46,621 bases of DNA from an uncultured Rickettsiales bacterium (lineage in GTDB: Bacteria; Pseudomonadota; Alphaproteobacteria; Rickettsiales; SXRF01): NCBI GenBank assembly GCA_964519595.1, contig CAZFJN010000009.1, positions 1 to 46,621 of the forward strand. The letters are read 5' to 3'. Position 1 is the stretch's first letter. Each line of letters starts with the position of its first letter. The translations under genes and the position numbers were made by a program. A model generated the notes under the pieces. That model ran no database searches. It worked only from the letters and a program-made list of their open reading frames with translations, and was not told where the DNA came from. This document shows, in pieces, positions 8,911-38,222 of the stretch.

Positions 8911-8921
8911 AATTATTTTGT

Positions 8922-15605: not shown

Positions 15606-18125
15606 CTACCGCAAAATGCCGGAAAAATGCCTGTATGCCGAAGTATTATTTGCCTCTTCTATGGTAGTTTTTGTTTTAGCTTTTAATTTTGTTCCTACAG
15701 TACAATACTCTGTTGGCAATACAGAAATCGGCGTGAGATCATAGCGAGTACGCATCAAATCAGAGACCAGCGATAATTCCGGATTATGATGTGAACGGTC
15801 GCGATTCAGGCTGTATAATTTCTTACATCCCACATTAGCCAGATGGTTAACATATCCGGCCACCTGTTCAGTAGTCATTTCCTGGAAAGAACACATATTT
15901 ACCGCCAGATCCAATTGCAACGGCTTAAAATCCTCAAGTTTGTTGGCAGGAATAAACACAAAATCAAATTCCTGCCAACGTTTAAACAGCTCATCATTTG
16001 GCATATCGCCCAGAATGGCAATTTTCGCATCCGGACAAGCGCCGCGTATATATGTTGTCGAGAAAATCAATGTTGCCGGAAGATCAATACAGAAAAACGT
16101 GGTATTTTTAAAAAGCGTATTAAACTGATAAGCAAAACCGCCCCAACCAGAACCAATTTCCACCACCGCCTTACGTGAAGTCTGGTCATTTTTAAATTGA
16201 GCCAGAAAATTAGCGCGATCAAGGCCAATCAGAACTTCATAAAATTTCAGTGTGTCGAGATTAATTTTACCATACGGCGATTCATATCCAAAACCTCCGC
16301 ACGCCTCTGACTCAGGAACGAAGAGATTGCTGTTATCAATGGCGCGTAGATCATTCAACCGCGCAATAAATGGCGGCGCTTTATGTGAATGATGTGTGCG
16401 GTATGTATAGCTGCGCTCGCCAGTGATATGATAGCAATGCTCCCGAATTTTTGAAACCAATATCGGTGAAGCATCAAAAAGATAATCAAATCCCATAACT
16501 TCTTCATACCAGTAGCGGCTCATTTTATAGCTGCTGACCATGGAAATAATTTTATCACGAGTGATTTTATAGAAATTATACAGTTCAGAGTTTTTTTCGC
16601 GCTCTACAGTTTGCGCGAAATTAGCAAGAACTGCTTCGATGGCGGTATCAGCTTTGTGATGACCTGCAGTTTTTGACTGTTTAGCTGACAGTGGCAGAAT
16701 CTTTGCTTTTTTGGGAGATTTTCCATTCCATGGTTTAACCAGTAAAGCTGGCTTCTTAGCAGTAACTACGGCAAGTATTTCTTTAGTCACACGCGCGCCA
16801 GCGGATTTATCTATTCCACAAGGACGCACAAATTTCTCTATGAATGAACGGCGCTTTCCTGCAAGCGGATCATCGCCGGCGCTTAGTGCCGCTATATATT
16901 GAAGTATCTCTGCTACGTTTGCAGCAACATAAAGTGTATTATTATCGCGCATACGCATAAAATGCTCTGCTTTCTCCTGCGTCAAACGATAACGTTCGAT
17001 GAGTGGAGAAATAACCGGTTTGTTCATAATTAGTGCATCAAGCATACCGGAAGTATTTAGCCCGACAACACAAGAAGCATGTGTAAGGCTATTATAGAAA
17101 TCTTTGAATGTTTCTTCACTATCTGGCAGCGTACCTTCTCGTGGCCACACACCAATGCCATTATCAAGCAATTTCAGGCCATTTTGCCAGTTTGCCGGAT
17201 GAGAACGGAATAATATCTGTGTGTTCTGCAGAGCAGAATTGCCACTGGATTTCAATGCATCATTCATATCACGTACCAGCCATGTTTCATCAGCAGCAAT
17301 ATTCGCTGAAGATCCCAAATACAGCACATAAGGACGAGCAGGATCAAGTCCAACCTGTTTACAGAACTCTTCTCGAGTTATGGCGTCTGATTGTTTGTCA
17401 AACCATTTATCAAAAAAAGGTGAGCCGACAATTACGATCTTTTTTTCTGGAATGCCATGATATTTGATGCAGTCATTACGATGACCATCATGCCATGCTA
17501 ACACTCGAGTAGGATGAATATGGAACAGACCTTTAGTAGAAGTATTGTCCCAGGATAAGACCGGAATTACAGTAGGAATTCCCATTCTTTTTGCAGCTTT
17601 AACAAGCTCAAGTTCCTGACTGTAGCGCATATTGCAAGGACTGGCGACTAACACATCCGGTTGCTTGGAATGTAGCCAACCCATAATGTTTTGATCAGGA
17701 GGAGCAAGGCGCTCAATCAATGTAAGAAATTTCCGCAGCAAAGCAGACCCCATAATCGGACGGATTTTTTTTGCTGTAACAATGTTATGCAGCTTTTTAG
17801 GAAGTTTGAGGTAATTAGCCCAACGATTGCGATAAAACTCATAATCATCACCGCGTCGGCAGTAGCTATTGTAGCTACGCAACTCGCGCAAAAAAATCAG
17901 CGGATTGCGTAATCGCCCCTTACGACCTGGAAAATACTCAATATTTACTTCAGGGTTTTTACGACGCCAGTTATCAAGCGCCGTTGTATTAGGATGACCA
18001 TAATTTGACCAGTATTCATCAAATACAATCAGCAAATCAGACTTTGAAGCTAGAATGGCATTAATGGAACTTTCGTGATAAGAAAAATGCGAGGTATTAC
18101 GGATAGCGTAGATGATTTTTGGCAT
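15606..18125 (-). CDS. Bifunctional fusion: N-terminal GT-B-like glycosyl/phosphotransferase-like domain, Lys-rich linker, C-terminal SAM methyltransferase
   Basis: 839 aa. The N-terminal half shows a Rossmann-pair pattern ('VLVASPCNMRY...IPTVIPVLSWDN', 'RSHPANW', 'VVGLNTSGMLDALIMNKPVI'). The C-terminal half has 'REHCYHITGERSYTYRTHHSHK' and 'VVEIGSGWGGFAY', paralogous to 10016-11104. Confidence 0.6.
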   Translation of the reverse strand: MPKIIYAIRNTSHFSYHESSINAILASKSDLLIVFDEYWSNYGHPNTTALDNWRRKNPEVNIEYFPGRKGRLRNPLIFLRELRSYNSYCRRGDDYEFYRNRWANYLKLPKKLHNIVTAKKIRPIMGSALLRKFLTLIERLAPPDQNIMGWLHSKQPDVLVASPCNMRYSQELELVKAAKRMGIPTVIPVLSWDNTSTKGLFHIHPTRVLAWHDGHRNDCIKYHGIPEKKIVIVGSPFFDKWFDKQSDAITREEFCKQVGLDPARPYVLYLGSSANIAADETWLVRDMNDALKSSGNSALQNTQILFRSHPANWQNGLKLLDNGIGVWPREGTLPDSEETFKDFYNSLTHASCVVGLNTSGMLDALIMNKPVISPLIERYRLTQEKAEHFMRMRDNNTLYVAANVAEILQYIAALSAGDDPLAGKRRSFIEKFVRPCGIDKSAGARVTKEILAVVTAKKPALLVKPWNGKSPKKAKILPLSAKQSKTAGHHKADTAIEAVLANFAQTVEREKNSELYNFYKITRDKIISMVSSYKMSRYWYEEVMGFDYLFDASPILVSKIREHCYHITGERSYTYRTHHSHKAPPFIARLNDLRAIDNSNLFVPESEACGGFGYESPYGKINLDTLKFYEVLIGLDRANFLAQFKNDQTSRKAVVEIGSGWGGFAYQFNTLFKNTTFFCIDLPATLIFSTTYIRGACPDAKIAILGDMPNDELFKRWQEFDFVFIPANKLEDFKPLQLDLAVNMCSFQEMTTEQVAGYVNHLANVGCKKLYSLNRDRSHHNPELSLVSDLMRTRYDLTPISVLPTEYCTVGTKLKAKTKTTIEEANNTSAYRHFSGILR

Positions 18126-18204
18126 AGAACACTCAAATAAGTTAAACTGTAAATAATATCAAAATACTGCCCCCTCCTAACCTTTAGAAGAACTGTCTAG
18201 CAAA

Positions 18205-19221
18205 TTATAAAACAGGAATAAGTAGCAGTTGAAAAATTTGTCGCTGCCCGGGAGTTTTGAAAATGCTGCCACGGTGGATACCATCAGGATTGAACAATAA
18301 AAGATCACCGCGATCTGTGCCGTAAATTTCTTCATGCGCTAGCAATTTTCTTGTTCTATCATCTGATGTGATAAGATCATTTCCAAAATTAGCCTTTTTC
18401 TGATATTCCTTTGGTAACGCTGCAAAAAATTTACGTCGCTCAACAACATTAATAGTATCCATTCCGCTTTTATCATTTGCTTTTCGAATAGCAAATTCCT
18501 CAGGATCACACATGCGATAACTACCCGGCAGGTAACGGAACGCACCAGTATTCTCATCGCAGTAATCAGAGCGGTAAATAATAACTTTCAGTGCCTCGAT
18601 GGTCGAATCGACATGCATGTAAAAAGTTTCAGATCGTTTGCCGTCCTCAAAGCAGCATGTTGAAAGAATGCCTGCATCATCATCCTGATTAATTTGCAGA
18701 ACGACAAATTTCATCTGATAGCCGATGCCTTTATAATCGCGACAAAGGTCGTATACGCCATGCTCTTGCAATAATGTATCAAAGAAACTATAAACAGAAT
18801 CCTGTTTGTTATCAAATCGGCATAATATAGAGCAAACACCCTCTACGCCGCGATCTTCCGGCTTCATAGTAAGCCGCTTCGCAATTAAATCCTGTGCGGC
18901 TTTTTCAGTCAGATCAAGCATCCTTTTTCGCGTATCCGGGTTAAGCCGTATGCCAACAATTCCGTCTTCCTGTAAGTTATTAGCAAGCGGTCTTAATTTT
19001 CTGGAAAGCTGACCTTCGTCTTTTTTGATTTCTGAGAAACGTTTTTGCTGTGCCAACATCTTATTGTAATGCTCATTAAACATTGCCAACGCCTTCTGAT
19101 TATCTTCCGGCGTCAGCTGCTTGGACAGCTCAACGTAATAAGGATGATTTTCATAGTCAATTTCAGGAAAAAGCGTTTCAACCACAGTAGGCTGAAACCA
19201 TTTTCTGGCAAAATTAAGCAT
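18205..19221 (-). CDS. Hypothetical protein, possible Fe(II)/2-oxoglutarate (PhyH-like) dioxygenase
   Basis: 338 aa. HxD 'MHVDS', 'GAFRYLPGSYR' and a distal His 'NPDGIHRGS', spaced as in PhyH-type facial triads. This is a weak motif-level call. Confidence 0.4.
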   Translation of the reverse strand: MLNFARKWFQPTVVETLFPEIDYENHPYYVELSKQLTPEDNQKALAMFNEHYNKMLAQQKRFSEIKKDEGQLSRKLRPLANNLQEDGIVGIRLNPDTRKRMLDLTEKAAQDLIAKRLTMKPEDRGVEGVCSILCRFDNKQDSVYSFFDTLLQEHGVYDLCRDYKGIGYQMKFVVLQINQDDDAGILSTCCFEDGKRSETFYMHVDSTIEALKVIIYRSDYCDENTGAFRYLPGSYRMCDPEEFAIRKANDKSGMDTINVVERRKFFAALPKEYQKKANFGNDLITSDDRTRKLLAHEEIYGTDRGDLLLFNPDGIHRGSIFKTPGQRQIFQLLLIPVL

Positions 19222-21783: not shown

Positions 21784-23049
21784 TTATTTTTCTAGCCATT
21801 TAGTATTGTAAATAGTTTGCGCTAGAAACTGATTTCCAAGAGGTGACATATGCGCCCAATCACAATAATAACCAAGCCCTGCCCATATAGAATCATTTTT
21901 TGAGCGAAACTCATAAACCACATCACGACCATCAATAGTAAGAAAACCAGACTTTTTTGCAATGTTAACTACTGCATTGAATGGTTCTACAATCTGAGTG
22001 TATTGATCAGGAAGCGGACGAACAATATCAGGGTTAGAGATGTAAACCGACGGATGCGCTACATATACACTATGTTTGATTCGATTATCATGTAAAAGTT
22101 TTTTTATTGGCAACACGGCATTTTCCGGTTCTAGCAATACGCCAGAACGCATTCGACTGTTTAAATCATTCTCGTAATGTACATACACCACCCCAACCAC
22201 CTTACCTTTATAACGCTCCAGAAGCATTTTCAGACGCAGGTAATTGTCATCAGCCTGTGAACTGGGAATTCCTGAATTGATTACGCGGTATTCAGGATAT
22301 AGTTTTTGTAGGAAGGAAGGCAGAGTACTCTCATCCCCCATGCGTGCGCCATACACCATGCTATCGCCGATCACTAAAATAATGCGATCACTTTTAACCT
22401 CTGGCAATGTTAACCGATAACCTTCTTCCGTAATAGTAATTGGAACCATTCGTGTCACATAGTGATCAATAAAATATTGCGCTTCCTTGCTTGGTTTCCC
22501 TTCTGGACGTGGCCCGTAGAGATGAGGCTGTACCCACACACCATCAAAAAATCCCTGAATTGTACCATTCATACGACGTGCAGGCATCAGACCTGCTTTT
22601 TCATCCATATTGCCACGCTGTTCAATTATTTCAGCCTTTAAATTTAATCGTTTTTTTTGTATGGCTATTTCATCATCAATGATTTTATTGACATCACCAC
22701 CAACAGTATAACCTGCCTCAGACAGAATTGGTATCCATGCCTTTAAATGCTCCCAGTTCTGAATGTAGCGCTGCGGTAGAATCTGCCATGGATAAGTTTC
22801 GGGACGATAGAGACTCGCATCCGGCATTGATCCTGCCGATTGCACTAATAAAGCATGATTATTCTCCGATGGAGTGTCAGCAATTCCTGCGGCATGATCG
22901 AATGAGAACCAACGCAAGGCAGTCAATAGCTGCGCGCTGATACTTTCATGTTTTTCAGTTCCTTTGTATAAAGAATAACCTCCCTCTAACGTCAACACAG
23001 TAATAGCAACTATAAGCACGCCAATCAAAAAATCAGTAACCTTAGACAT
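21784..23049 (-). CDS. Membrane-anchored SGNH/GDSL-type hydrolase or acyl-modifying enzyme
   Basis: N-terminal TM 'FLIGVLIVAITVL', block I 'ILVIGDSMVYG' and block V-like 'CDWAHMSPLGN'. I placed the start at ATG 23049; the track uses a TTG at 23079. Confidence 0.55.
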   Translation of the reverse strand: MSKVTDFLIGVLIVAITVLTLEGGYSLYKGTEKHESISAQLLTALRWFSFDHAAGIADTPSENNHALLVQSAGSMPDASLYRPETYPWQILPQRYIQNWEHLKAWIPILSEAGYTVGGDVNKIIDDEIAIQKKRLNLKAEIIEQRGNMDEKAGLMPARRMNGTIQGFFDGVWVQPHLYGPRPEGKPSKEAQYFIDHYVTRMVPITITEEGYRLTLPEVKSDRIILVIGDSMVYGARMGDESTLPSFLQKLYPEYRVINSGIPSSQADDNYLRLKMLLERYKGKVVGVVYVHYENDLNSRMRSGVLLEPENAVLPIKKLLHDNRIKHSVYVAHPSVYISNPDIVRPLPDQYTQIVEPFNAVVNIAKKSGFLTIDGRDVVYEFRSKNDSIWAGLGYYCDWAHMSPLGNQFLAQTIYNTKWLEK

Positions 23050-23186
23050 ATGATTCGATCTTGTGTTGGAGAATGACAAAGATTATGAACAAAAGTCTAT
23101 CTAATACACAATAATATCTATTGCAATTGGTTTGGTGATACGTCTTATATGCTGTATTAACACTTAGTATCGTGCAAGGGGTTGCT

Positions 23187-23621
23187 ATGAAAAAAAACAT
23201 TGGCTTACACGAGCATTTTCAGCGCGAAGAAAAGCTAGACACCGCATCCGATCGCGGTTTCGGATTAGTAATGGCAGCGGTATTTTTGTTATTGGCAGCG
23301 TTTGCAAGTTATCACAACCATGTTACAAAAGCACTTATATTGCTCGTGGTGGCTGTTGTATTTTTATTTACAGCAATTATACATCCAGAGAGATTGTCGA
23401 TGCTCAATCTTTTATGGACGCGCTTTGGCCTGCTTCTGCACAAAATAACCAATCCTATTTTAATGTTGCTTATTTATCTGACAGCCATTGTGCCAATGGG
23501 ATTGTTGCTTAAATTATTTGGCAAAGATCCGCTGAACCGTAAATTCCAGCCTTACGCTGAAAGCTATTGGATTACGCGCCAGCCTGGGCCATTGCCGGAG
23601 ACAATGCGTAATCAGTTTTAA
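23187..23621 (+). CDS. SxtJ-family small membrane protein
   Basis: About 144 aa with three hydrophobic helices and a tail 'LFGKDPLNRKF...SYWITRQPGP...MRNQF'. This matches my recollection of SxtJ-like proteins found next to carbamoyltransferases. Confidence 0.6.
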   Translation: MKKNIGLHEHFQREEKLDTASDRGFGLVMAAVFLLLAAFASYHNHVTKALILLVVAVVFLFTAIIHPERLSMLNLLWTRFGLLLHKITNPILMLLIYLTAIVPMGLLLKLFGKDPLNRKFQPYAESYWITRQPGPLPETMRNQF

Positions 23622-23651
23622 AGAAAATCTTGAAGAACCTTAGAGGGTCTT

Positions 23652-23804
23652 ATGGTTGATTTTATTCGTGAACTATGGCGTTTCATGCGCGCGCGCAAAA
23701 AATTCTGGCTGCTACCAGTAATGGTCATTATGATCATGTTAGGCGGTCTGCTAGTGCTTGTGAAAGGCTCCACGGTTGCACCGTTTATCTACGCTCTGTT
23801 TTAG
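23652..23804 (+). CDS. SxtK-like / DUF5989-type 50-aa membrane peptide (below the ORF-track cutoff)
   Basis: Hand translation: MVDFIRELWRFMRARKKFWLLPVMVIMIMLGGLLVLVKGSTVAPFIYALF. An RBS-like gaggg lies 6 nt upstream. The stop is 6 nt before the carbamoyltransferase ATG. Confidence 0.6.
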   Translation: MVDFIRELWRFMRARKKFWLLPVMVIMIMLGGLLVLVKGSTVAPFIYALF

Positions 23805-23810
23805 TTTCAC

Positions 23811-25643
23811 ATGCGTATCCTAGGAATTTCCGCTTTTTACCACGATAGCGCCGCCGCTTTGCTTGCGGATGGCAAGATTGTTGCCGCCGCGCAGGAAGAG
23901 CGTTTTACGCGGAAAAAACATGATGCACGTTTTCCGTCCAGTGCAATTAGCTATTGTTTAAAGGAAGCAGGAATAACTCTTGCTGATATTGATTATGTCG
24001 CATTTCATGAAAAACCATTTATAAAATTTGAGCGGTTGGTTGAAACCTATCTGGCATGTATGCCGTATGGATTTACCTCTTTCCGCGCGGCAATACCATT
24101 GTGGCTAAAGGAAAAATTATTTCAGAAAAGCTTGCTGCGTGACGAGTTGCGCCGCTTTGATCCGGAGTTTGATCACACACGTAAATTGTTATTTGCCGAG
24201 CATCACCAAAGTCATGCGGCAAGCGCATTTTTCCCTTCTCCATTTGAAGAAGCAGCTGTGCTTACCATGGATGGCGTAGGCGAATGGGCAACTACCAGCG
24301 CTGGAATGGGAAGTGGAAATAAACTAACGCTGCATAAGGAAATCCATTTTCCGCATTCACTCGGCCTGCTTTATTCTGCTTTCACCTACTATCTTGGTTT
24401 TAAAGTCAATTCAGGTGAATATAAGGTTATGGGACTTGCTCCTTATGGCGAGGCAAAATACGCAGGTAAGATTCTCGATCACCTAATAGATCTCAAAGAA
24501 GATGGTAGCTTTCGGTTAGATCAACGTTATTTCAACTACGCCACTGGACTAACCATGACATCGCCAAGATTTGATAAACTGTTTGGCGGATTGCCACGCT
24601 CTGCAGAATCGCCACTGACTCAGCGCGATATGGATCTCGCCGCATCTATTCAGTTAGTCACGGAAGAAATTGTTTTACGCCTTTCCCGGTCATTAGCAAA
24701 GGAAACTGGCGCAAAGAATCTATGCTTAGCCGGTGGCGTTGCGCTTAATTGCGTGGCCAACGGAAAAATATTGCGCGACGGAGCTTTTGAGCGCATTTGG
24801 ATTCAACCGGCGGCAGGTGATGCAGGATGTGCTCTAGGAGCGGCATTAGCTGTGCATTACGGTTTTCTAAACCAACCACGCACGCCACAACCACATGATG
24901 CTATGCACGGCAGCTATCTGGGGCCTGAGTTCACGCAGCCTGAAATTGAAGCGGCACTCAACGAGTGTGGAGCTAATTTTGAAACACTCGATGATGCAAA
25001 ATTGCTGGATACAGTTGTGGATTATTTATCCGGCGGCAATGCCGTCGGCTGGTTTCAGGGAAGGATGGAATTTGGCCCACGCGCACTGGGAAATCGCTCT
25101 ATTCTTGGCGATCCACGCTCATCTGTTATGCAGAAAACTCTCAATTTAAAAGTCAAATTCCGTGAAAGTTTTAGGCCATTTGCACCATCAGTACTAGCAG
25201 AACATGTAGCAGAATGGTTTGAACTGAACGAAGCAAGTCCCTACATGCTGCTGGTTGCTCCGGTTAAATCATCACGCTGTATGCCAATTAGCGAAGAAAA
25301 TAAAAAACTATTCGGCATAGACAAGTTGAACCTTACACGCTCTGAAATTCCTGCCGTAACGCATGTTGATTATTCCGCTCGCGTTCAAACCGTGCATGAG
25401 CAAACAAATCCACGCTATTATCAATTGCTTAAAGCATTCGAGCGGCGCACAGGTTGCCCGATGCTGGTCAATACTAGCTTCAATGTACGCGGAGAGCCTA
25501 TTGTTGCAACCCCGCAAGACGCTTTCCGCTGCTTCATGGGAAGCGGTATCGAGGTGCTGGTAATAGGCAATTGCCTGCTACGCAAAGAGCTTCAGAACAC
25601 CGCGCTAGCAAATGACTATACCAGCGCATTTGAGTTAGATTAG
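23811..25643 (+). CDS. Carbamoyltransferase, NodU/CmcH family
   Basis: Motifs 'MRILGISAFYHDSAAALLADGKIVAAAQEERFTRKKHD', 'AGGVALNC' and 'VNTSFNVRGEPIV'. Confidence 0.92.
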   Translation: MRILGISAFYHDSAAALLADGKIVAAAQEERFTRKKHDARFPSSAISYCLKEAGITLADIDYVAFHEKPFIKFERLVETYLACMPYGFTSFRAAIPLWLKEKLFQKSLLRDELRRFDPEFDHTRKLLFAEHHQSHAASAFFPSPFEEAAVLTMDGVGEWATTSAGMGSGNKLTLHKEIHFPHSLGLLYSAFTYYLGFKVNSGEYKVMGLAPYGEAKYAGKILDHLIDLKEDGSFRLDQRYFNYATGLTMTSPRFDKLFGGLPRSAESPLTQRDMDLAASIQLVTEEIVLRLSRSLAKETGAKNLCLAGGVALNCVANGKILRDGAFERIWIQPAAGDAGCALGAALAVHYGFLNQPRTPQPHDAMHGSYLGPEFTQPEIEAALNECGANFETLDDAKLLDTVVDYLSGGNAVGWFQGRMEFGPRALGNRSILGDPRSSVMQKTLNLKVKFRESFRPFAPSVLAEHVAEWFELNEASPYMLLVAPVKSSRCMPISEENKKLFGIDKLNLTRSEIPAVTHVDYSARVQTVHEQTNPRYYQLLKAFERRTGCPMLVNTSFNVRGEPIVATPQDAFRCFMGSGIEVLVIGNCLLRKELQNTALANDYTSAFELD

Positions 25644-25661: not shown

Positions 25662-26309
25662 CTACCTTTGATAAATAAACCATTCATTGAAAGCCTCTCC
25701 ACCTGAACCTTCAAGTAATGGACAAGGCTCTTTTTCTACTGAAATCAATTTAAAGCCAGGAAGGTTATGATCTGTGTGTATCTTCGGTGCAGGAGTGGTG
25801 ACATAATATCCTTCAGGCTCAATAATTTTTGCAAGTTTCTCTATATAAACTTCATATTTTTCTTCAGTCATATGAGCAGAAGAAAAACAGTCGACTACCC
25901 AGTTAAAGGTCACGCCAAAAATATCCAATGCCAAAGAAGAATCATGTGCAACACGTACTTTCTTTTGACTCAATCCATGCAATGGCAACTCGTACCCCAT
26001 TAAAGCCTCGATGCTAGGAAGATACGCTTCTATGCCAAAATAATGTCCTTTTTCAAGATATGCCGCCAGCCATATAGCCAGACGCCCTGATCCACAGCCA
26101 AAATCCAGTACGCGTGCGGTTTTTGGAAGTCCTTTCTTCAGCAAATAATCGGCCTGATAGCGGCCCAATATCCACGGTCTTCCATAGGCTTGGTGATGTT
26201 CTTCTCTCAACAGCGCCGTATCAATTGAAAGCTCATTCCATTCGGTGCTGTCATACAAAACCGTATTTGTAGTTTGTGGTTTCATTCTCCAACCTGAATA
26301 AATGCTCAT
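25662..26309 (-). CDS. Class I SAM-dependent methyltransferase
   Basis: Motif I 'RVLDFGCGSGRLAIWLA'. It converges on the carbamoyltransferase gene with an 18-nt gap. Confidence 0.7.
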   Translation of the reverse strand: MSIYSGWRMKPQTTNTVLYDSTEWNELSIDTALLREEHHQAYGRPWILGRYQADYLLKKGLPKTARVLDFGCGSGRLAIWLAAYLEKGHYFGIEAYLPSIEALMGYELPLHGLSQKKVRVAHDSSLALDIFGVTFNWVVDCFSSAHMTEEKYEVYIEKLAKIIEPEGYYVTTPAPKIHTDHNLPGFKLISVEKEPCPLLEGSGGEAFNEWFIYQR

Positions 26310-26331
26310 AATTTATAACCTTGTTGGAAAA

Positions 26332-27357
26332 TTAAGATTGATAAGAATGAGATGTGATTTTCTGAGTAATGTTATACATGGAGTAGCATTTGTCCATAAT
26401 GAACTTTCGAACATCAGGTAATACGTGTTCATGGCGATCACTGGCCGGCACAATAACGCCTGCCGGAGCTTGTATAAAGCTGGAATTCGCTTCTATCGGA
26501 ATGTTATTAAATGTTGGAGTATTTTTTCGTGATGTCCTGAGATTTGCAAATTTATATATTTTCTTAAGAAGAAGAAGTGGCGATTGTAACATCTCCTCAA
26601 ATGAGACCAGCAACACCTTGCCAGGACGCTTCTTAAATTGGTACATTGCAGATCCGGTTGATTCCATCCATAAATCAGTCGCCGCTACCACATCACCATA
26701 ACGATCCGGCATATACCTGCTTGCAGATGCGTACCATGAAACAGGATCGCGTATAATGCTGATGAGAAGGCCGTCCTGATAGTCGCGAAAAAACCCCTTT
26801 ATCTCAGCCGCATTGGCTGCCACACGCGCAGCAAACGCCACCCAATAGCGTATTTTATTAGGATCACGGTAGAGTGATTGATAATCCAACCATGCATTAA
26901 AATATGAGGTAATGTACGCATCAAGAATGGAACGCTGGGAATCTTTCCCATATAAAATCAAACATTCTGAGAAAATTTCCTGCTGTAACGATGTGCAGAA
27001 AATGAAGGGCAGCTTGCTTTGCTGCGCCACACCATCCTTGCTATAGCCTTGTATAGAATGTGTACGTGCAGGATGCTCGCAGAGCAAATCAAATAACTCC
27101 TGCGGCGATGATTTAATATCCAATTTTGGCCAGTAATATTTATTTGGCCTGCCAATATGTAGCTCTGAATGGTGAACGTGCAGTTGCGAATGTCCGTCCA
27201 ACAGCTGACTTAATAGCGTTCCGCCACTGCGCTGAACCTGTGAAATTAGTAATAACGGCTGACGAATGGGAACAATAAATGATCTGCGCTGTCCGCGAAT
27301 AATCTGGTTATTATCAAAAACATCTTCAATATTAGGAGGAGGCATCGGAATAAACAT
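26332..27357 (-). CDS. Sulfotransferase-family protein
   Basis: A 5'-PSB-like loop 'VQRSGGTLLSQLL' near the N-terminus and a later 'RDPVSWYAS' (3'-PB-like). It lies immediately downstream of wzt. Confidence 0.62.
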   Translation of the reverse strand: MFIPMPPPNIEDVFDNNQIIRGQRRSFIVPIRQPLLLISQVQRSGGTLLSQLLDGHSQLHVHHSELHIGRPNKYYWPKLDIKSSPQELFDLLCEHPARTHSIQGYSKDGVAQQSKLPFIFCTSLQQEIFSECLILYGKDSQRSILDAYITSYFNAWLDYQSLYRDPNKIRYWVAFAARVAANAAEIKGFFRDYQDGLLISIIRDPVSWYASASRYMPDRYGDVVAATDLWMESTGSAMYQFKKRPGKVLLVSFEEMLQSPLLLLKKIYKFANLRTSRKNTPTFNNIPIEANSSFIQAPAGVIVPASDRHEHVLPDVRKFIMDKCYSMYNITQKITSHSYQS

Positions 27358-27361: not shown

Positions 27362-28717
27362 TTATCTTTCTATGCTCCAATTATAATCCTCGACATACGC
27401 ACCATAATAACTAGGAAGGATATGCCCTGTTCCATAATAGTCACCTTCGGTAACGAGCAATTGTAACGCCCCTGGAAACTTGTCTGCTATTTGTCTATTA
27501 AGGTGCAGGCCAATCTGCATGGCATAAATTCCTGGATATAATCGTATTTTATCTACAGTACAAACCAACGCTCCTTCGCGCGGAAGATCGGTTAAATCAG
27601 CGTTGATCGCATAGCTTGGTAACGAGAAAACAATCTCGCGCTTGTCATTTACGAATGAAATACTGATCATTGCATGAACAATTTTTTCAGAAAAATTTTC
27701 ATCGAATACATAAGGAATTTTAATATGAATGCGCTGTCCTGTGCTGACGCGATCAATTGGAACACCTTGCTCATTTAGTATTACAACACAACCAATTTTT
27801 GCATTACCATTCCCCTTCCGAGTGCTTGGATCTTGAATAAGAATAGCTTCGCCGGTGATATTATCAACCTCCACCTCATCTCCTACAGCCTCAGATGGAT
27901 TTTCTGCCAGATAGCGTTGTAGTACAGCCTCACAAGAACCATCGGCAATAAGCCTGCCTTCCTTCAGTAAAATTGCACGGTCACACAATGCCGTCACTCG
28001 CGCAGGGCTATGTGACACAAATAGCAGTGTCATCCCCTCGTCACACAGGCTTAACATAGCATCCATGCATTTTTGTCTGAAAGGCGCATCGCCGACAGCA
28101 AGAACTTCGTCAACCACCAGCACATCCGGTGCGAGGTTAAGGGCTACTGCCATTCCTAGCCTTGCGCGCATACCTTTGGAATAGCGTTTAAGCGGCGTGT
28201 CCATAAAATCAGCGATTTCGGCGAATTGTACGATTGCGTCGTAATGCTTGCGTATTTCGGCTGGGCTGACGCCGAGAATACCGCCATATAAAAATACATT
28301 TTCTTTGCCGCTTAGCTCAGGATTAAACCCTGCGCCAACGCCCATTAACGGCACAATGCGAACATTGGTCGAAACCTTGCCTTCGGTTGGCACCATGATG
28401 CCAACCAGAATTTTAAGCAGCGTACTTTTTCCGGCACCATTACGACCAATAATCGCTACGCGATCACCACGACGCAGCTCAAAATTAATATCACGTAGCG
28501 CCCATAAATAACGCTTGCCGTTTTTATCCTCAAAACGCGGCTGATTACTGGATGAGCTTTTTCGGCGCATCCATTCCAGCGGATTACACACCATCTGTTT
28601 TATCGAGCGCAGCGTAGAAGCAAGACTCACAAACTGACCAAGCTGGAAACGCTTGCTGACATGTTCGGCGCGGATAATAACGAATGGATCTACGGTTTTT
28701 ATGTTCATAGAGGTCAT
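27362..28717 (-). CDS. wzt: Polysaccharide ABC exporter ATP-binding protein Wzt with extended C-terminal (glycan-binding type) domain
   Basis: Walker A 'GRNGAGKST', signature 'YSKGMRARL' and Walker B 'VLVVDE'. At 451 aa it has about 180 residues beyond the NBD. Confidence 0.9.
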   Translation of the reverse strand: MTSMNIKTVDPFVIIRAEHVSKRFQLGQFVSLASTLRSIKQMVCNPLEWMRRKSSSSNQPRFEDKNGKRYLWALRDINFELRRGDRVAIIGRNGAGKSTLLKILVGIMVPTEGKVSTNVRIVPLMGVGAGFNPELSGKENVFLYGGILGVSPAEIRKHYDAIVQFAEIADFMDTPLKRYSKGMRARLGMAVALNLAPDVLVVDEVLAVGDAPFRQKCMDAMLSLCDEGMTLLFVSHSPARVTALCDRAILLKEGRLIADGSCEAVLQRYLAENPSEAVGDEVEVDNITGEAILIQDPSTRKGNGNAKIGCVVILNEQGVPIDRVSTGQRIHIKIPYVFDENFSEKIVHAMISISFVNDKREIVFSLPSYAINADLTDLPREGALVCTVDKIRLYPGIYAMQIGLHLNRQIADKFPGALQLLVTEGDYYGTGHILPSYYGAYVEDYNWSIER

Positions 28718-28723: not shown

Positions 28724-29548
28724 TTACACCACATCTGCAAACGAACGCTCGAGAGCGTTAAAAAATATAAGTCCGCCAATCAGCATCACACATGTTACAC
28801 CAGCGGCATAGGCAGAATAAATTGGATCAGGCGCAGGAACTCCAAGAATACACCAGCGAAATCCTTCAACGATTGCTGCCATCGGATTAATCTTGATAAT
28901 CCAAGCGAATGACTCAGGAATATTTTGAGCGCCATAGCCAACCGGCGTAAGCAACATCAACAGCTGCATTAAATATGTCGTCATAAACTTCACATCATGC
29001 AGCCACACTGCCGCTGCCGCCAACCAAATCCCTAAAGACAGCCCAACCAGCAGCACCGCAAGAATCATCAGCGGCAACCATACTATATTTTCTGACACCC
29101 CTACCCCAAAAATCAGCATCAATACAGCTAAAATACAAGCTGCGATAACAAAGTCAAACAATGCTACCATTACTGAACTTAAAGGAAATAACAGGCGTGG
29201 ACAGTAGATTTTCTGCACCACACTCTTATTAGTGGTTATGCTTGTCGCGCAGCCAACAACCACATTGGCAAACAAATCCCAGCCAATTAGCGCGGCAAAT
29301 ACATATACCGGATAAGCTATCCCCTCACCTGACAATTGCGCCATTGTGCCAAACAGGAAGGTGAACACTACCATCATCATTAATGGCCTGATAACTGCCC
29401 ATGCGCCGCCCAATGCTGATTGCTTGTAGCGCACTTTAATCTCACGCACCATCAGCATCACAGCCAAATGACGCCTGACCCACAATTCCTTTGGATCAAT
29501 TGATCTCCAGGCAGATGTTGTTGTATTAGCGCTCAGAAAAACCTCCAT
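28724..29548 (-). CDS. wzm: Polysaccharide ABC exporter permease Wzm (ABC-2 type)
   Basis: 274 aa with six hydrophobic segments and 'REIKVRYKQSALGGAWAVIRPL', typical of ABC-2 permeases. It is paired with wzt. Confidence 0.85.
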   Translation of the reverse strand: MEVFLSANTTTSAWRSIDPKELWVRRHLAVMLMVREIKVRYKQSALGGAWAVIRPLMMMVVFTFLFGTMAQLSGEGIAYPVYVFAALIGWDLFANVVVGCATSITTNKSVVQKIYCPRLLFPLSSVMVALFDFVIAACILAVLMLIFGVGVSENIVWLPLMILAVLLVGLSLGIWLAAAAVWLHDVKFMTTYLMQLLMLLTPVGYGAQNIPESFAWIIKINPMAAIVEGFRWCILGVPAPDPIYSAYAAGVTCVMLIGGLIFFNALERSFADVV

Positions 29549-31051: not shown

Positions 31052-32146
31052 ATGAATCGTGAACTGGTTATTGACGGTGTAAAGATAAATGACGCAAGTG
31101 ATTGCTATGTTATCGCGGAAATAGGGCAGAACCATCAGGGTGATGTTGAAATCTGCAAAAAATTGTTTGATTCAGCCAAGGCCTGCGGCGCGAATGCGGT
31201 AAAAATCCAGAAGCGCAATAATTTCAAGCTCTACACAAAAGAAATGTTTGATAGTCCTTACAACAGCGAGAATGCCTTTGCAAATAGCTACGGCACACAC
31301 CGCGAGGCGCTTGAATTTAACAAAGAGCAATATCAGGAACTTATCGCCTATGCGAAAAAAATTGGCATAATGTTTTTTGCCACCGCCTGGGATTTCGACA
31401 GCGCCGATTTTCTGGAAGCTCTTGATATGCCGGCTTATAAAATAGCCTCAGCTGATATTATTAATACGCCTTTGCTTAAATATGTAGCAAGCTTCGGCAA
31501 GCCAATTATTATCAGCACCGGCGGCGCGACAATGGAAGATGTGCGGCGCGCTTATAACGCGATTTATCCGATAAACAAACAATTGTCGATTCTGCAATGC
31601 ACGGCTGGTTATCCGCCGGCCTGGGAAGAGTTAAATATCTCTGTTATTAGCACTCTGCGCGAAGAATTTCCGGAAATAGTTATTGGTTTTTCCTCGCATG
31701 ATAACGGCATTGCAATGGCGGTTGCGAGCTATGTTCTCGGTGCGCGCGTTATTGAAAAACATTTTACGCTCAATCGCGCGATGAAAGGAACTGATCACGC
31801 TTTTTCACTGGAACATTCCGGCCTGGAAAAAATGATTCGCGATTTGAAACGTTGCCATATCGCTATGGGCGATGGTGTAAAAAAGCGTTATCCAAGTGAA
31901 GAAAAACCGCTCTTTAAAATGGGAAAAAAGCTGGTTATTGCACATGATTTGCCAGCCGGTCATATTCTTACTGAAAAGGATATCGCCTTTAAATCACCAA
32001 ATGACGGCCTGCCTCCTTATGAAATAGAAAAATTTATCGGCAAGCGCATAAAAACTGCTCTGCGGGAAGATCATACTATCAGCCTCTCTGATGTTGAATC
32101 GTCGGCGGCAGGCAAAATAGCAGAAAAATCCAGCGAAGCGGCATAA
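31052..32146 (+). CDS. Ulosonic-acid synthase of the NeuB/NANS family (PEP-condensing) with C-terminal SAF/antifreeze-like domain
   Basis: Motifs 'YVIAEIGQNHQGD', 'AVKIQKRN', 'YKIASAD', 'ILQCTAGYP', 'GFSSHDNG' and 'KGTDHAFSLE'. By eye these resemble animal-type N-acylneuraminate-9-phosphate synthase. Confidence 0.85.
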   Translation: MNRELVIDGVKINDASDCYVIAEIGQNHQGDVEICKKLFDSAKACGANAVKIQKRNNFKLYTKEMFDSPYNSENAFANSYGTHREALEFNKEQYQELIAYAKKIGIMFFATAWDFDSADFLEALDMPAYKIASADIINTPLLKYVASFGKPIIISTGGATMEDVRRAYNAIYPINKQLSILQCTAGYPPAWEELNISVISTLREEFPEIVIGFSSHDNGIAMAVASYVLGARVIEKHFTLNRAMKGTDHAFSLEHSGLEKMIRDLKRCHIAMGDGVKKRYPSEEKPLFKMGKKLVIAHDLPAGHILTEKDIAFKSPNDGLPPYEIEKFIGKRIKTALREDHTISLSDVESSAAGKIAEKSSEAA

Positions 32147-32155
32147 GGAATTTCC

Positions 32156-32944
32156 ATGCTGTTTGATTTAAGTGGTCGCGTGGTGGTTATAACTGGCGCA
32201 CTTGGTCAGCTTGGCCGCGAATATACGAGCGCGATTATAAATGCCGGAGGAAGAGTGGTCGCTATTGATGTTGCGCTTCCTGATGTTGCCGGATTTGCCG
32301 ATGATAAAGTTCTCTACATCAAATGCGATATCACCAAACGCCAAGACCTTGAGCAGGCGCTTGAGCGAATTTCTGCACATTGGGAAACGCCATTTGGCTT
32401 GATAAACAACGCCGCCATTGATTCTCCGCCTGATGCGCCGGCCTCAGAAAATGGCGCTTTTGAAAATTATCCTGAAAGCTCCTGGGATAAAATAATGGAA
32501 GTTAATGTAAAAGGCACCATGCTTTGCTGTCAGGTTTTTGGCGGCGCAATGGCAACAGCCGGGCGTGGCAGCATAATAAATATAAGCTCAATTTATGGTA
32601 TTGTTTCTCCTGATCAATCTATTTACCAATATCGCAGAGATCGCGGCGAGACTTTTTTCAAGCCAATTGCATATAGTGTTTCTAAATCTGCATTATTTAA
32701 CTTAACTCGCTATCTGGCTTCTTACTGGGCGAAATCTGGCGTGCGCGTTAATACGCTTACAATTGCCGGAGTTTTCCGCAATCAGGAGCAGAGTTTTCTG
32801 AACGCTTATAACTCACGAATTCCTGTTGGCCGCATGGCAAAAGCAAATGAATATAACGGCACAATAATTTATATGTTATCAGCAGCATCAGAATATATGA
32901 CTGGCGCAACAATCACCGTTGATGGAGGCTGGACTTGCATATAA
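32156..32944 (+). CDS. Short-chain dehydrogenase/reductase
   Basis: Motifs 'VVVITGALGQLG', 'NNAA' and catalytic 'YSVSKSA'. Confidence 0.85.
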   Translation: MLFDLSGRVVVITGALGQLGREYTSAIINAGGRVVAIDVALPDVAGFADDKVLYIKCDITKRQDLEQALERISAHWETPFGLINNAAIDSPPDAPASENGAFENYPESSWDKIMEVNVKGTMLCCQVFGGAMATAGRGSIINISSIYGIVSPDQSIYQYRRDRGETFFKPIAYSVSKSALFNLTRYLASYWAKSGVRVNTLTIAGVFRNQEQSFLNAYNSRIPVGRMAKANEYNGTIIYMLSAASEYMTGATITVDGGWTCI

Positions 32945-34434
32945 ACAATCAAAAAACATCTGCTATTATTGCAAATATTCCGGACATCATTCCAAATATT
33001 ATTGATGGTAACGATTGTCTGGCGATAAGCGGCAATACTATTGATAAATTCTCGCCGCATGATGGAAATCTGCTGTATAAAATCACCAGCTCAAATCATG
33101 ATGATGTTGGCCGGGCAATTACAGTTGCAAAAAATGCTCAGACCGGCTGGGCAGATACTCCGCCGGTTCAGCGCGGCTTTATTTTGCATCAAATTTGCAA
33201 CCATCTTGAGAAGAATGCTGATAAAATCGCAGAAATAGTAGCGAAAGAAACCGGCAAATCACTTAAAGACGCAAAAGGAGAAACATCCGGCGCGATTGCG
33301 CTTGGCCGTTTTTATGCCGGAGAAGGCCAGCGCCTGTACGGACGTACCACTACATCAGGAACTGCAAATAAATACGCAATGACCATCCGCCAACCGTGCG
33401 GAATTGCCGGCTTAATCGTTGCCGCTAATACGCCAATAGCAAATGTCGCCTGGAAAACATTTCCGGCGCTTATTTGCGGTAATGCGGCGATTTTAAAAGC
33501 TCCTGAAGATACGCCGGCAACGGCATGGATTTTTACAAAATTGCTGCATGAGGCAGGTTTGTCGTCCGGATTACTGAATCTGATACAAGGATCAGGTTTA
33601 GAAGCCGGAGCGCCAATTGTTGAATCAGCTGATATTGATGTAATCAGTTTTACCGGCTCAACCAAGGTTGGCAAATGGATTGCTGAAATTGCCGGAAAAC
33701 GCCTCGCTAAAATATCCCTGGAACTAGGCGGAAAAAATCCACTCATTGTCTGCGAAGATGCCGACATCACTCGCGCGGTGAACTGGATATGCCTTTCTGC
33801 ATTTAGTAACGCTGGTCAACGCTGTGCAGCAGGCAGCCGCATAATTATTGTAGAAACTGTTTATCAGAAACTGGTAGAGGCCTTGCTTGCTAAAGTCGCC
33901 ACGCTTAAAGTTGGCAATAGCGATGACGATGATTTTGGCCCGGTTGTTAACGAGCGGCAGCTTAATAATATTTTAGAGGCTATACAGAGGGCTAAATCGC
34001 GCGGCGCTAATATTTTGTGTGGCGGCAACCGCTTGAGGGGAAAAAAACACGAAGGCGGCTATTATATAGCGCCAACGATAATGGACAACGTATCGCCAGA
34101 TGATGAAATATCAACTCTTGAATTATTTGGTCCGGTTACCACACTTTACAAAGCGCGTAATTACGCCGAGGCACTGGCGCTCGCTAACCATTCGCCTTAT
34201 GGACTTACTGCCTGCATTCATACCAGCAACTTTGATCGTGCGACGCATTTTACTCAGGCAATAAAATCCGGAGTTGCCGTTGTTAATGGCGGAACATTTG
34301 GCAGCGAACCACATATGCCTTTTGGTGGCTTAGGCTTCTCCGGCAACGGCAGTCGTGAACCAGGTACTGAAGCGCTTAATATTTACAGTGAATTAAAAAC
34401 AATATATTTGAATGTTGATCCGACTAAATACTGA
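32935..34434 (+). CDS. NAD(P)-dependent aldehyde dehydrogenase
   Basis: Motifs 'ELGGKNP', the catalytic Cys region 'FSNAGQRCAAGSR' and 'PFGGLGFSGNG'. It starts at a TTG overlapping the SDR gene by 10 nt; no in-frame ATG occurs before the conserved core. Confidence 0.88.
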   Translation: MHINNQKTSAIIANIPDIIPNIIDGNDCLAISGNTIDKFSPHDGNLLYKITSSNHDDVGRAITVAKNAQTGWADTPPVQRGFILHQICNHLEKNADKIAEIVAKETGKSLKDAKGETSGAIALGRFYAGEGQRLYGRTTTSGTANKYAMTIRQPCGIAGLIVAANTPIANVAWKTFPALICGNAAILKAPEDTPATAWIFTKLLHEAGLSSGLLNLIQGSGLEAGAPIVESADIDVISFTGSTKVGKWIAEIAGKRLAKISLELGGKNPLIVCEDADITRAVNWICLSAFSNAGQRCAAGSRIIIVETVYQKLVEALLAKVATLKVGNSDDDDFGPVVNERQLNNILEAIQRAKSRGANILCGGNRLRGKKHEGGYYIAPTIMDNVSPDDEISTLELFGPVTTLYKARNYAEALALANHSPYGLTACIHTSNFDRATHFTQAIKSGVAVVNGGTFGSEPHMPFGGLGFSGNGSREPGTEALNIYSELKTIYLNVDPTKY

Positions 34435-34450
34435 TCCAGATAGATATTAT

Positions 34451-34520
34451 ACTGTTAAATTCATGCTGCTAAATTCATACTGTTAAATTCATACTGTTAA
34501 ATTTATATTGCTAAATGTTA
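34451..34520. repeat. Five tandem 14-bp units (actgttaaattcat and variants)
   Basis: Counted directly in the ALDH-transketolase spacer. The array ends 10 nt before the transketolase ATG. Confidence 0.9.
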
Positions 34521-34530
34521 GGAAGAAATC

Positions 34531-36486: not shown

Positions 36487-36497
36487 CACTGAATATT

Positions 36498-38222
36498 ATG
36501 CAGACTAACACGCGTTTTTTTATCGCACGCTCACGTTATGGGAAACACGCCATACGCCTGCTAACCATGCGCTATATCAAAGGCATTTCCTGGATACATC
36601 CCTTGTATCGCCTACTTAGAATCAAACGCATGTGGTTCGGCGGACACATTAACTGGAATGCTCTACTACACAATAAACCACTGCCTGCGCGACAATCAAA
36701 ATCACCGCGCATTCTGATCGCCACCAGCACCGGCGCGCATCTTGCCGCGTCACGCGTTGAACAAACTCTTGGCGTGGCGCTGCATTTACGTGATGCTAAA
36801 CTATCATTCTTACTCTGTGATGGTTCGCTTCCAGCCTGCATGATGTGTGAGAGTTCCCTGCTATCTGATACGGTAAGTTTTGTTAAATCCGGTCCAAAAG
36901 AATTATTGTGCAATACATGTTTTGCGCCATCCGCCAGCTCCATAGCTCCGCTTGGCCTGCCATTGCATAGTTATAGCGATTGGCTTGATGCAACTACTAA
37001 AACCGCTATTGAATCAAGCGTTGCCAGGATTGGAAAAGATGAGCTGGCAAATTTCACTCAGGACGGAATTCGCCTCGGTGAACATGCCATGGCGGCTTCC
37101 TGCCGTTTCTTTGGCACAAGCGATGTTTTTGTAATGAATAACGGAGAAACTGTACTGCGTCGCTATCTGGTTGCCGCCTGGTTTACTTTGTGTGTATGCC
37201 AGAAATTATTCGCGCAAGAACGTCCGGATATTGTGGTGCTGCATCACGGTATTTATGTGCCGCAAGGAGTTATTGCCGATTACGCAAAACATAATGGCAT
37301 CAGGGTGGTAACATGGCATCCGGCTTACCGCAAAGGCACTTTTATATTCAGCCATGACGATACATACCATCGCACTATGATCAATGAGCCAACTGATTAT
37401 TGGAAAAATATGCCTTGGGATGCACAAAAAGAAGAAAAAATCATGCGCTATCTCGCCTCGCGTCAGACCGGAAGCAGCGACTGGATCTGGTTTCATGAAA
37501 GTCCGCTATTCGATAGCAGCAAAATTAAAAAAGAACTGGCTCTTGATGAAAATAAACCAGTAATAGGCCTGCTTACGAACGTTGTGTGGGACGCGCATTT
37601 GCATTATCCAAACAATGCCTACTCCAGCATGATGGAATGGTTGTTTGATACAATTGACCATTTTAAAACACGCAAAGATGTGCAGTTGGTGATTCGTATT
37701 CATCCGGCAGAGATATATGGCAATGTCCAGTCACGCCAAACTGTAATAGATGAAATATTCAGGCGCTATGAAACGCTACCGCCTTCTATAAAAATTATTC
37801 CGCCACTAAGCGACATTAGTACCTACAGCATTATGGCCTTGTGCGACAGCGTGCTAATTTACAGCACAAAAACCGGCATTGAGCTGGCAACAAACGGGAT
37901 GCAAGTTATAGTCGCCGGAGAAGCATGGATACGCGGCAAAGGCTTTACGGTGGATGCTAATAGCCCGGAAGAGTTTAGAAATATTCTGGCACGCTTACCG
38001 CTTAGAACAAAATTAGACTCAGAAAAAATAACGCTGGCGCGGCGTTATGCTTATCATTTTTTCTTCCGGCGCATGATAGATATTGAACTATTTATTCCAA
38101 CCAAGAGTCAGCCGCCTTTTAATCTTAATATACAATCGCTGGATGATCTACTGACTGGAGAATGTAAAGGTCTTGATGTGGTCTGCAATGGAATTATTAA
38201 TGGAACGCCTTTTATTCAGTAA
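36498..38222 (+). CDS. GT-B-fold capsule-biosynthesis-like glycosyltransferase with Cys-rich N-terminal insert
   Basis: Motifs 'LVIRIHPAE' and 'VLIYSTKTGIELATNGMQVIVAG', plus the Cys cluster 'CDGSLPACMMCE...CNTCF'. I chose the start at ATG 36498; the track ORF starts at a TTG at 36474 inside the transketolase gene. Confidence 0.5.
   Translation: MQTNTRFFIARSRYGKHAIRLLTMRYIKGISWIHPLYRLLRIKRMWFGGHINWNALLHNKPLPARQSKSPRILIATSTGAHLAASRVEQTLGVALHLRDAKLSFLLCDGSLPACMMCESSLLSDTVSFVKSGPKELLCNTCFAPSASSIAPLGLPLHSYSDWLDATTKTAIESSVARIGKDELANFTQDGIRLGEHAMAASCRFFGTSDVFVMNNGETVLRRYLVAAWFTLCVCQKLFAQERPDIVVLHHGIYVPQGVIADYAKHNGIRVVTWHPAYRKGTFIFSHDDTYHRTMINEPTDYWKNMPWDAQKEEKIMRYLASRQTGSSDWIWFHESPLFDSSKIKKELALDENKPVIGLLTNVVWDAHLHYPNNAYSSMMEWLFDTIDHFKTRKDVQLVIRIHPAEIYGNVQSRQTVIDEIFRRYETLPPSIKIIPPLSDISTYSIMALCDSVLIYSTKTGIELATNGMQVIVAGEAWIRGKGFTVDANSPEEFRNILARLPLRTKLDSEKITLARRYAYHFFFRRMIDIELFIPTKSQPPFNLNIQSLDDLLTGECKGLDVVCNGIINGTPFIQ

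Follow-up and report, generated by a model that had tools for sequence, protein, structure and literature searches.

In a 46,621-nucleotide stretch of DNA from an uncultured Rickettsiales bacterium (contig CAZFJN010000009.1; the whole stretch is called the window here), three adjacent genes encode a small SxtJ-family membrane protein (J), a 50-residue DUF5989/SxtK microprotein (K) and an O-carbamoyltransferase (enzyme I), and a fourth gene, divergent from them, encodes a membrane-anchored SGNH protein (Table 1). I propose, with a probability of roughly 0.45, that the four together are an O-carbamoylation module of the SxtI/J/K/L type, which would work as a shuttle resembling the Dlt and Pat systems and decorate a polysaccharide exported by Wzm/Wzt. 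This proposal builds on the family memberships of the four proteins, the invariance of a motif at the end of K, the linkage of the four genes, the intact catalytic residues of the SGNH protein and the predicted topology; all chemical steps beyond carbamoyl-AMP I infer. The trio as such is ordinary and catalogued, publications and database names having recorded its linkage before, and all four protein families (DUF5989/SxtK, SxtJ, the NodU/CmcH/TobZ superfamily and the SGNH superfamily) are already known. A full-text literature search, which did not extend to the primary DltX paper, found no paper that names DUF5989 and no link of DUF5989, SxtK or carbamoyltransferases to an FxYxxF shuttle or to DltX, MBOAT or SGNH partners, although an earlier mention is possible.

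The last six codons of K, FIYALF, fit the hexapeptide FxYxxF, which at the extreme C-terminus of a protein is a published acyl-shuttle motif, found as FIYNEF in DltX (PMC13653941) and as FIYANF in NgPatA (PMC12148441). In DltX, a protein of 49 residues, the tyrosine takes D-alanine from the membrane-bound O-acyltransferase (MBOAT) DltB and hands it to the serine of the SGNH protein DltD, and the tyrosine of PatA carries acetate to PatB (PMC12148441, PMC13653941). A scan of one genome per species yielded 80 loci with a carbamoyltransferase 60-73% identical to enzyme I, from Alpha-, Beta- and Gammaproteobacteria, Pelagibacteraceae (Pelagibacter), Acidobacteriota, Chloroflexota, Nitrospira, Verrucomicrobia, Bdellovibrionales, Neomarinimicrobiota and Oscillatoriales. 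These loci hold 72 DUF5989 family members, and all 72 share the C-terminal consensus G(S/T)x(V/I/L)AP-F-(I/L/V)-Y-(T/A/P)-(L/I)-F-COOH, in which the tyrosine is invariant. A C-terminal F.Y..F closes 72 of the 73 open reading frames of the family but only 4 of the 10,738 others in the same loci, and two of these four are MBOATs, ending FIYFDF (locus L010) and FIYFQF (locus L071). The motif also ends 118 of 150 distant DUF5989 representatives, while nearly all of the remaining 32 have it followed by apparent read-through, and the tyrosine is replaced in one. Divergent members, namely the K of locus L084 and a paralog in L010, have lost similarity in the head and kept the tail.

That L010 paralog heads an operon with SGNH and MBOAT genes, which I count in favour of the shuttle. 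The operon (L010:2311-7074, minus strand) runs from the paralog, which ends PFLYALF, through three SGNH-like genes to the MBOAT ending FIYFDF, and it directly adjoins J-K-I; in L071, the MBOAT ending FIYFQF comes directly after I-J-K.

By its pattern of codon differences and its wide conservation, K is a real gene rather than a chance open reading frame and is under strongly purifying selection. When compared with its homologue on L081, a 65%-related metagenome contig, K shows 18 synonymous-only and 6 non-synonymous codon differences, and a representative library contains 2,911 clusters (50% identity) of K homologues at an E-value of at most 1e-3. Its match to Pfam DUF5989 (PF19451) scores 84.3 bits (cut-off 27, E 5.8e-24) and covers positions 2-49 of the 49-position profile. 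The initial annotation had the coordinates of this 50-codon frame right, including its end exactly 6 nt before the ATG of enzyme I; K follows J after 30 nt and has GAGGG upstream of its ATG. That annotation also called the frame unannotated, which is not so generally, as relatives are annotated 'DUF5989 family protein' and UniProt calls one of them SxtK (Oscillatoria PCC 7112). K consists of a basic N-terminal head, a single transmembrane helix and a short tail, and across the family lysines and arginines average 4.4 in the head and 0.2 over the final 13 residues, a bias that predicts an N-terminus inside and a C-terminus outside. A search of PDB sequences with K gave chance transmembrane matches only and no DltX chain. 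I dismissed the apparent joining of K to large proteins in L058, L017, L030 and other loci: in GC-rich DNA these frames are extended upstream by artefact.

J, described from the start as a three-helix membrane protein of about 144 residues, has exactly this length, and its AlphaFold2 model (mean predicted local distance difference test score, pLDDT, of 86) has three helices, at residues 22-42, 46-65 and 67-110, and ends in a tail of 34 residues. Against Pfam SxtJ (PF19588) it spans positions 4-98 of 99 and scores 20.7 bits (E 7.5e-4), below the gathering threshold of 24.4. I nevertheless place it in the SxtJ family because its relatives carry PF19588 and have the same synteny: there are 266 of them at 40-65% identity (E down to 1e-52), most with PF19588 and some named 'SxtJ family membrane protein'. 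The SxtJ and SxtK assignments first made for the two small genes are thus borne out for K by its own score and for J by way of its relatives, not by the Pfam cut-off itself; a search of NCBIfam gave no match for either. Invariant or nearly invariant positions in J are R23, F25, G26, L70, N74, W77, H85, P90, P103, G112, D114, Y127, W128, R131 and the final Q143-F144, the C-terminus of the family being nearly always QF, a possible docking motif.

Enzyme I matches Carbam_trans_N (365 bits) and Carbam_trans_C (250 bits) in Pfam over its full length, and it aligns, also over its full length, to solved enzymes with E-values from 1e-81 to 2e-102 (7xb6 2e-102, NovN, GdmN, TobZ 5e-81). The earlier designation as a NodU/CmcH carbamoyltransferase is therefore correct for the superfamily and not for NodU itself, since the NCBIfam NodU equivalog NF041651 scores 149.4 bits against a cut-off of 1000. 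Enzyme I shares its two-domain architecture with TobZ, GdmN, NovN, NodU and CmcH but differs from the soluble TobZ-type enzymes in having a subfamily-specific C-terminal tail. This tail, [YW]xxxF(E/A/D)(L/P)D-COOH, lies outside the TobZ-aligned region and is found in the J/K-linked carbamoyltransferases of 68 of 79 loci, 50 of them with FELD, which is also how the window enzyme ends (25587-25643). Either this tail or the QF end of J could be a docking motif. To my knowledge, TobZ, GdmN, NovN, NodU and CmcH act alone on small-molecule acceptors, without SxtJ, DUF5989 or SGNH partners.

The trio holds together over great evolutionary distances. J is adjacent to the carbamoyltransferase in 73 of the 80 loci and K in 71, in the order J-K-I (as in the window) or I-J-K (in cyanobacteria and the sxt clusters), which agrees with the co-occurrence stated in the initial annotation. 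Sugar-nucleotide or Wzm/Wzt genes lie within 8 kb in at least 20 of the 80, and this together with the range of phyla bears out the view that the trio has no toxin-specific role. Four loci (L004, L016, L026 and L080) have J and the carbamoyltransferase side by side with neither K nor an SGNH gene within 8 kb, and may represent a reduced, two-gene form of the module; in L063, L067 and L074 the carbamoyltransferase stands alone.

The commonest neighbour family of the 80 loci is SGNH-like, and a profile built from it also matches the protein encoded divergently from J in the window. Of 79 loci, from many phyla, 55 have an SGNH-like gene by this profile, and in 48 that gene is no more than 400 bp away from I/J/K. 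Its presence tracks that of K: 53 of the 70 loci with K have it, as against 2 of the 9 that lack K (Fisher p = 0.003, with no correction for phylogeny). The four genes are linked in three orders: SGNH<>J-K-I, I-J-K-SGNH and SGNH-J-I-K. In the cyanobacterial loci L057, L062, L065, L066 and L068, I-J-K is followed by three SGNH-like paralogs in the position of sxtL. I rejected the possibility that the SGNH genes merely serve MBOAT or AT3 acetylation systems encoded nearby, as a motif-ending MBOAT is present in only 2 of the 80 loci and no other neighbour family recurs in more than 11.

In the window, the SGNH gene is 137 bp from J on the opposite strand, or 107 bp if its start is TTG 23079. Its product has an N-terminal transmembrane helix (residues 2-28, pLDDT 83-88 in the AlphaFold2 model), some 190 poorly modelled residues and a C-terminal alpha/beta SGNH domain (residues 220-420). 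The catalytic residues are intact, with Ser230 in VIGDS (codon 22362-22360) and His400 in DWAH (codon 21852-21850). In an alignment of 22 triad-linked relatives the histidine is invariant, the serine is at least 90% conserved, and the glycine of block II and the asparagine of block III are present. Foldseek with the model returned acetyl xylan esterase (7ddy, E 5e-7), TesA and PatB (7tjb, E 1.3e-4), and the family profile matched TesA (7e-15), AlgX (2e-7), AlgJ (4e-6), PatB1 (1e-5) and a lipopolysaccharide-modification acyltransferase in the PDB. The window protein itself scores below the curated Pfam cut-offs, both for Lipase_GDSL (15.3 bits vs 23.6) and for SGNH (14.0 vs 27). A hydrophobic N-terminal helix was found in 75 of the 80 SGNH members checked, a set that comprises, besides the locus neighbours, the window protein and both of its close relatives. 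These two (P0122 and P0123) are the only relatives detectable by a word-seeded search with the 431-residue form, and both adjoin the I/J/K genes, one beside J-K-I on L081 and the other beside I, K and a divergent J on L084, a TARA scaffold. The latter stretch (L084:1-17164) carries SGNH-J-I-K beside a B12/radical-SAM (S-adenosylmethionine) enzyme, a MATE exporter, a 13,649-residue open reading frame and nine tandem ones of 67-94 residues, a setting more suggestive of a natural-product cluster than of a glycan locus.

I regard the SGNH protein, from its sequence and position, as the proposed terminal transferase and as an SxtL-like fourth component. The SxtL-like label rests on the position of such genes after I-J-K in cyanobacteria, on length (421 vs 426 residues), on GDSL names and on shared origin, as sxtI, J, K and L have a common origin in Oscillatoriales (PMC2684587). 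Matches to the SGNH profile include the name 'lipolytic protein G-D-S-L family'; they are dominated by Microcoleus paralogs, and no protein named SxtL is among them. The window protein is itself distant from the cyanobacterial SGNH neighbours (about 15-21% identity). Many of the SGNH anchors (among L001-L080) have a conserved glutamate near the end of the transmembrane helix, followed by an arginine (EIGLR, EAGLR), where the window protein has TLEGG (22980-23049); this charged residue may mediate contact with J or K.

If the four proteins do form a shuttle, enzyme I would begin by making carbamoyl-AMP in the cytoplasm from carbamoyl phosphate and ATP, which is the established chemistry of the TobZ family and is carried over here from that family. 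J would dock enzyme I at the membrane and provide a route to K. Tyr47 in the FIYALF tail of K would then receive the carbamoyl group on the outer side of the membrane, just as DltX receives D-alanine and PatA acetate; the motif, size and topology of K point this way. Finally, the linkage and the intact catalytic residues suggest that the group would pass from the tail of K to Ser230 of the anchored SGNH protein and on to a hydroxyl of the exported glycan, in the manner of DltD and PatB. Enzyme I, soluble and dependent on ATP, and the SxtJ protein would thus take the place normally held by an MBOAT or AT3 protein. Domain searches of the window proteins found no MBOAT or AT3 domain in any gene, which leaves K and the SGNH protein without their usual partner, and I count this in favour of the shuttle. 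The sxt cluster of Lyngbya wollei, in which sxtI is truncated, sxtL absent and sxtJ and sxtK unlisted, goes with a lack of carbamoylated toxins (PMC3037375) and is counted on the same side.

The chief alternative, which I consider unlikely, though the best of the others, is that J and K merely hold enzyme I at the inner face of the membrane, where it would carbamoylate an undecaprenyl-linked glycan before export, perhaps as a chain-terminating cap read by the C-terminal domain of Wzt; the SGNH protein would then do something separate, such as stripping off or editing esters or carbamates, a role of the kind put forward for SxtL. Enzyme I is a complete TobZ-type enzyme, and such enzymes elsewhere act directly on the final acceptor. 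In characterised systems the Wzt_C domain, present in the window Wzt, recognises a chain-end modification that is added in the cytoplasm, and the loci with J and enzyme I but neither K nor an SGNH gene also fit a tether. Several further points weigh against the shuttle. Wzm/Wzt pathways usually complete and cap the chain in the cytoplasm; the carbamoyl nitrogen of saxitoxin is later sulfated by an enzyme dependent on 3'-phosphoadenosine 5'-phosphosulfate, which suits cytoplasmic carbamoylation and so agrees with a tether; and the carbamoyl-serine intermediates of serine hydrolases usually turn over slowly. I know of no route from a cytoplasmic TobZ-type enzyme to a periplasmic tyrosine, and J, which would have to supply one, is a small protein of three helices whose model has no structural relative in the PDB (Foldseek, best E 3.5) and whose charge bias does not decide between the two orientations. 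Charge bias supports an outward SGNH domain moderately (43 members N-in, 17 N-out and 15 ties), 17 of the 70 K-bearing loci lack an SGNH gene within 8 kb, and K does not match the Pfam model of DltX (DUF5989 is the sole family reported at an E-value of at most 1), so that its likeness to DltX is one of motif and architecture only.

A tether, however, leaves unexplained why K is best conserved at its extreme C-terminus, predicted to lie outside, why this end fits the acyl-shuttle hexapeptide, and why the SGNH gene tracks K; nor would a tether need two separate membrane proteins. I favour the shuttle over a simple tether because the invariant tail of K and a conserved, anchored SGNH partner occur together. 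The coupling of a cytosolic enzyme to a membrane- or lipid-linked substrate through J and K, which is what the initial annotation argued for, is thus retained as this second-ranked alternative, and is incomplete in that it omits the SGNH partner and the FxYxxF tail.

Less probable by some way is that K carries no group at all and instead docks onto or regulates an SGNH decarbamoylase or esterase, its tail binding in the SGNH pocket and so controlling how carbamoyl or acyl groups are taken off in the periplasm. In favour of this, DltX binds the esterase DltE with its tail as well as DltD (PMC13653941), a decarbamoylase role has been suggested for SxtL (PMC2885083, PMC3037375), and the best fold matches to the SGNH domain are to esterases. 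An esterase-like fold, on the other hand, does not distinguish SGNH transferases from hydrolases, PatB and AlgX being matched as well, and there is no obvious rationale for a remover being co-inherited with an adder across many phyla. The weakest idea, and a very improbable one, is that J and K are a small device for transporting carbamoyl phosphate or exporting the carbamoylated product, or that the genes simply hitch-hike in glycan islands: both are small membrane proteins of no assigned function and such islands are mosaic, but the order and 0-30 nt spacing are kept across phyla and in very different neighbourhoods, selection on K is strongly purifying, a J and K pair of four to five helices is small for a transporter, and the window already encodes Wzm and Wzt.

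The module has its nearest parallels in known systems, the soluble O-carbamoyltransferases compared above among them. The sxt clusters have the same carbamoyltransferase, SxtJ (PF19588, via relatives) and DUF5989/SxtK families, the same adjacency of I, J and K followed by a GDSL/SGNH gene, and similar sizes (sxtJ 405 bp, sxtK 165 bp and sxtL 1281 bp, PMC2679770, vs 144, 50 and 421 residues in the window); they differ in order (I-J-K-L vs SGNH<>J-K-I) and in setting, the window being a Wzm/Wzt polysaccharide locus and not a toxin cluster. DltX resembles K in size (49 vs 50 residues), basic head, single transmembrane helix, outward C-terminus (for K by prediction) and tail (FIYNEF vs FIYALF) (PMC13653941, PMC12148441), and DltD resembles the SGNH protein in size (about 425 vs about 420 residues), single N-terminal transmembrane helix, SGNH fold and retained serine and histidine. 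Dlt, by which Gram-positive bacteria D-alanylate their teichoic acids, also has a cytoplasmic, ATP-dependent activating enzyme, but there it is an adenylation enzyme rather than a TobZ-type carbamoyltransferase; the window has neither an MBOAT (DltB) nor a carrier (DltC), and a three-helix SxtJ protein stands where Dlt has the MBOAT. The group moved would be carbamoyl instead of aminoacyl, the host is Gram-negative, the target would be a glycan, and K has no similarity to DltX at the level of hidden Markov models (HMMs). In PatA/PatB, AlgI/AlgJ/AlgX and OatA/OafA, which are O-acetylation systems of the MBOAT-SGNH and AT3-SGNH kinds, a tyrosine-borne acyl group goes to an SGNH serine on the outer face, as is proposed here; in those systems, however, acetyl-CoA serves as donor, and either the motif is fused to an MBOAT or an AT3 loop supplies the tyrosine, whereas the window has its motif on a free microprotein. 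The system is best filed as one that would work most like DltX-DltD and PatA-PatB and yet is a member of neither Dlt nor Pat, since it fails two features, having no MBOAT or AT3 and no DltX HMM match.

SxtJ and SxtK are, as initially stated, uncharacterised and presumed to work with SxtI (PMC2679770, PMC2885083), and together with SxtL they have been called 'unknown' or guessed at since 2008. A DltX-type tail and a DltD-like partner give them a specific mechanism that can be tested, in a family, DUF5989, with thousands of members across bacterial phyla. A broader and slightly more doubtful generalization is that modules of the SxtI/J/K/L type are a third class of trans-envelope group transfer beside MBOAT-SGNH and AT3-SGNH, in which the SGNH protein would be the true terminal O-carbamoyltransferase, SxtL would add rather than remove carbamoyl, and thousands of lineages would carbamoylate their surface glycans outside the cytoplasm. 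If the shuttle reading is right, the acyl-shuttle principle would extend to carbamates and to systems without MBOAT or AT3, it would become clear how Gram-negative bacteria, including the very abundant Pelagibacter, carbamoylate surface polysaccharides, and the assumed role of a conserved gene of cyanobacterial toxin clusters would be corrected. Should that reading be wrong, what remains is an ordinary trio of genes, already catalogued, within an O-antigen or capsule locus.

Table 1. Positions in the window of the four genes, the K tail and neighbouring features.
Feature	Position	Strand	Remarks
SGNH/GDSL-like protein	21784-23049	-	421 aa from ATG 23049 (431 aa if TTG 23079); divergent from J
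Intergenic region between SGNH gene and J-K-I operon (divergent)	23050-23186	.	AAGGGG upstream of J ATG
J, SxtJ-family small membrane protein	ATG 23187 - stop 23621	+	144 aa
K, DUF5989/SxtK microprotein	ATG 23652 - stop 23804	+	50 aa, MVDFIRELWRFMRARKKFWLLPVMVIMIMLGGLLVLVKGSTVAPFIYALF
Last six codons of K, FIYALF (fits FxYxxF 'acyl shuttle' hexapeptide)	23784-23801	+	Tyr47 codon 23790-23792
I, O-carbamoyltransferase	ATG 23811 - stop 25643	+	610 aa; Kae1-like N and YrdC-like C domains; no transmembrane segment
SAM methyltransferase	25662-26309	-	convergent with I
Sulfotransferase	26332-27357	-	convergent with I
Wzt ABC ATPase with Wzt_C domain	27362-28717	-	
Wzm permease	28724-29548	-	

The window is chromosomal and comes from an uncultured, Gram-negative organism present in freshwater and drinking-water metagenomes. 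Its genes run in the order ftsA-ftsQ-ddl, a pstS-like gene with an OprO/P porin, murB-murC, a glycan locus of about 30 kb, and a chemoreceptor. The exported-polysaccharide setting seen initially is confirmed by the Wzm permease (ABC2_membrane, 73.7 bits) and by Wzt (ABC_tran, 77.6 bits) with its carbohydrate-binding Wzt_C domain (37.1 bits), which place the locus in the Wzm/Wzt pathway; both genes are convergent with that of enzyme I. The glycan locus also encodes a GT2 glycosyltransferase, an FkbM-type and another methyltransferase, a sulfotransferase, and a set of cytidine diphosphate (CDP)-sugar genes (nucleotidyltransferase, 4,6-dehydratase, 3,5-epimerase and C-methyltransferase) that suggest a methylated deoxysugar. 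There is in addition a NeuB / cytidine monophosphate (CMP)-sugar synthetase / KpsC-S-like branch. A promoter-like site between the SGNH gene and J (23086-23115, plus strand) matches no better than expected by chance.

Several smaller features of the locus may be recorded. In window 118-9150, ftsA-ftsQ-ddl and murB-murC are split by the pstS-like phosphate-binding protein and the OprO/P phosphate porin (3827-6483). The glycan locus starts directly after murC, whose open reading frame (7468-9150) overlaps the next (9002-9988) by 149 nt, and from this overlap the true start of murC is probably internal to the frame. In the middle of the glycan operon (15606-19221, minus strand), proteins of 839 and 338 residues have no Pfam family above threshold and only a weak Epimerase_2-like match; contig L081 has genes for 839 and 341 residues at the corresponding positions, and the window pair are candidates for novel glycosyltransferases or a polymerase. 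The branch for an ulosonic or nonulosonic acid (31052-39024) comprises a NeuB-like synthase, a short-chain dehydrogenase/reductase, an aldehyde dehydrogenase, a transketolase-like protein, a 582-residue KpsC/KpsS-like (Capsule_synth) protein and the CMP-sugar synthetase. A terminal or linker residue resembling Kdo (3-deoxy-D-manno-oct-2-ulosonic acid) is common in known Wzm/Wzt systems. Finally, the methyltransferase and sulfotransferase (25662-27357, minus strand) stand directly beside the carbamoyltransferase, and L081 has the same pair. In the sxt clusters, sxtN (a sulfotransferase) and sxtX share the common Oscillatoriales origin of sxtI, J, K and L (PMC2684587), and a larger tailoring cassette may have been co-opted.

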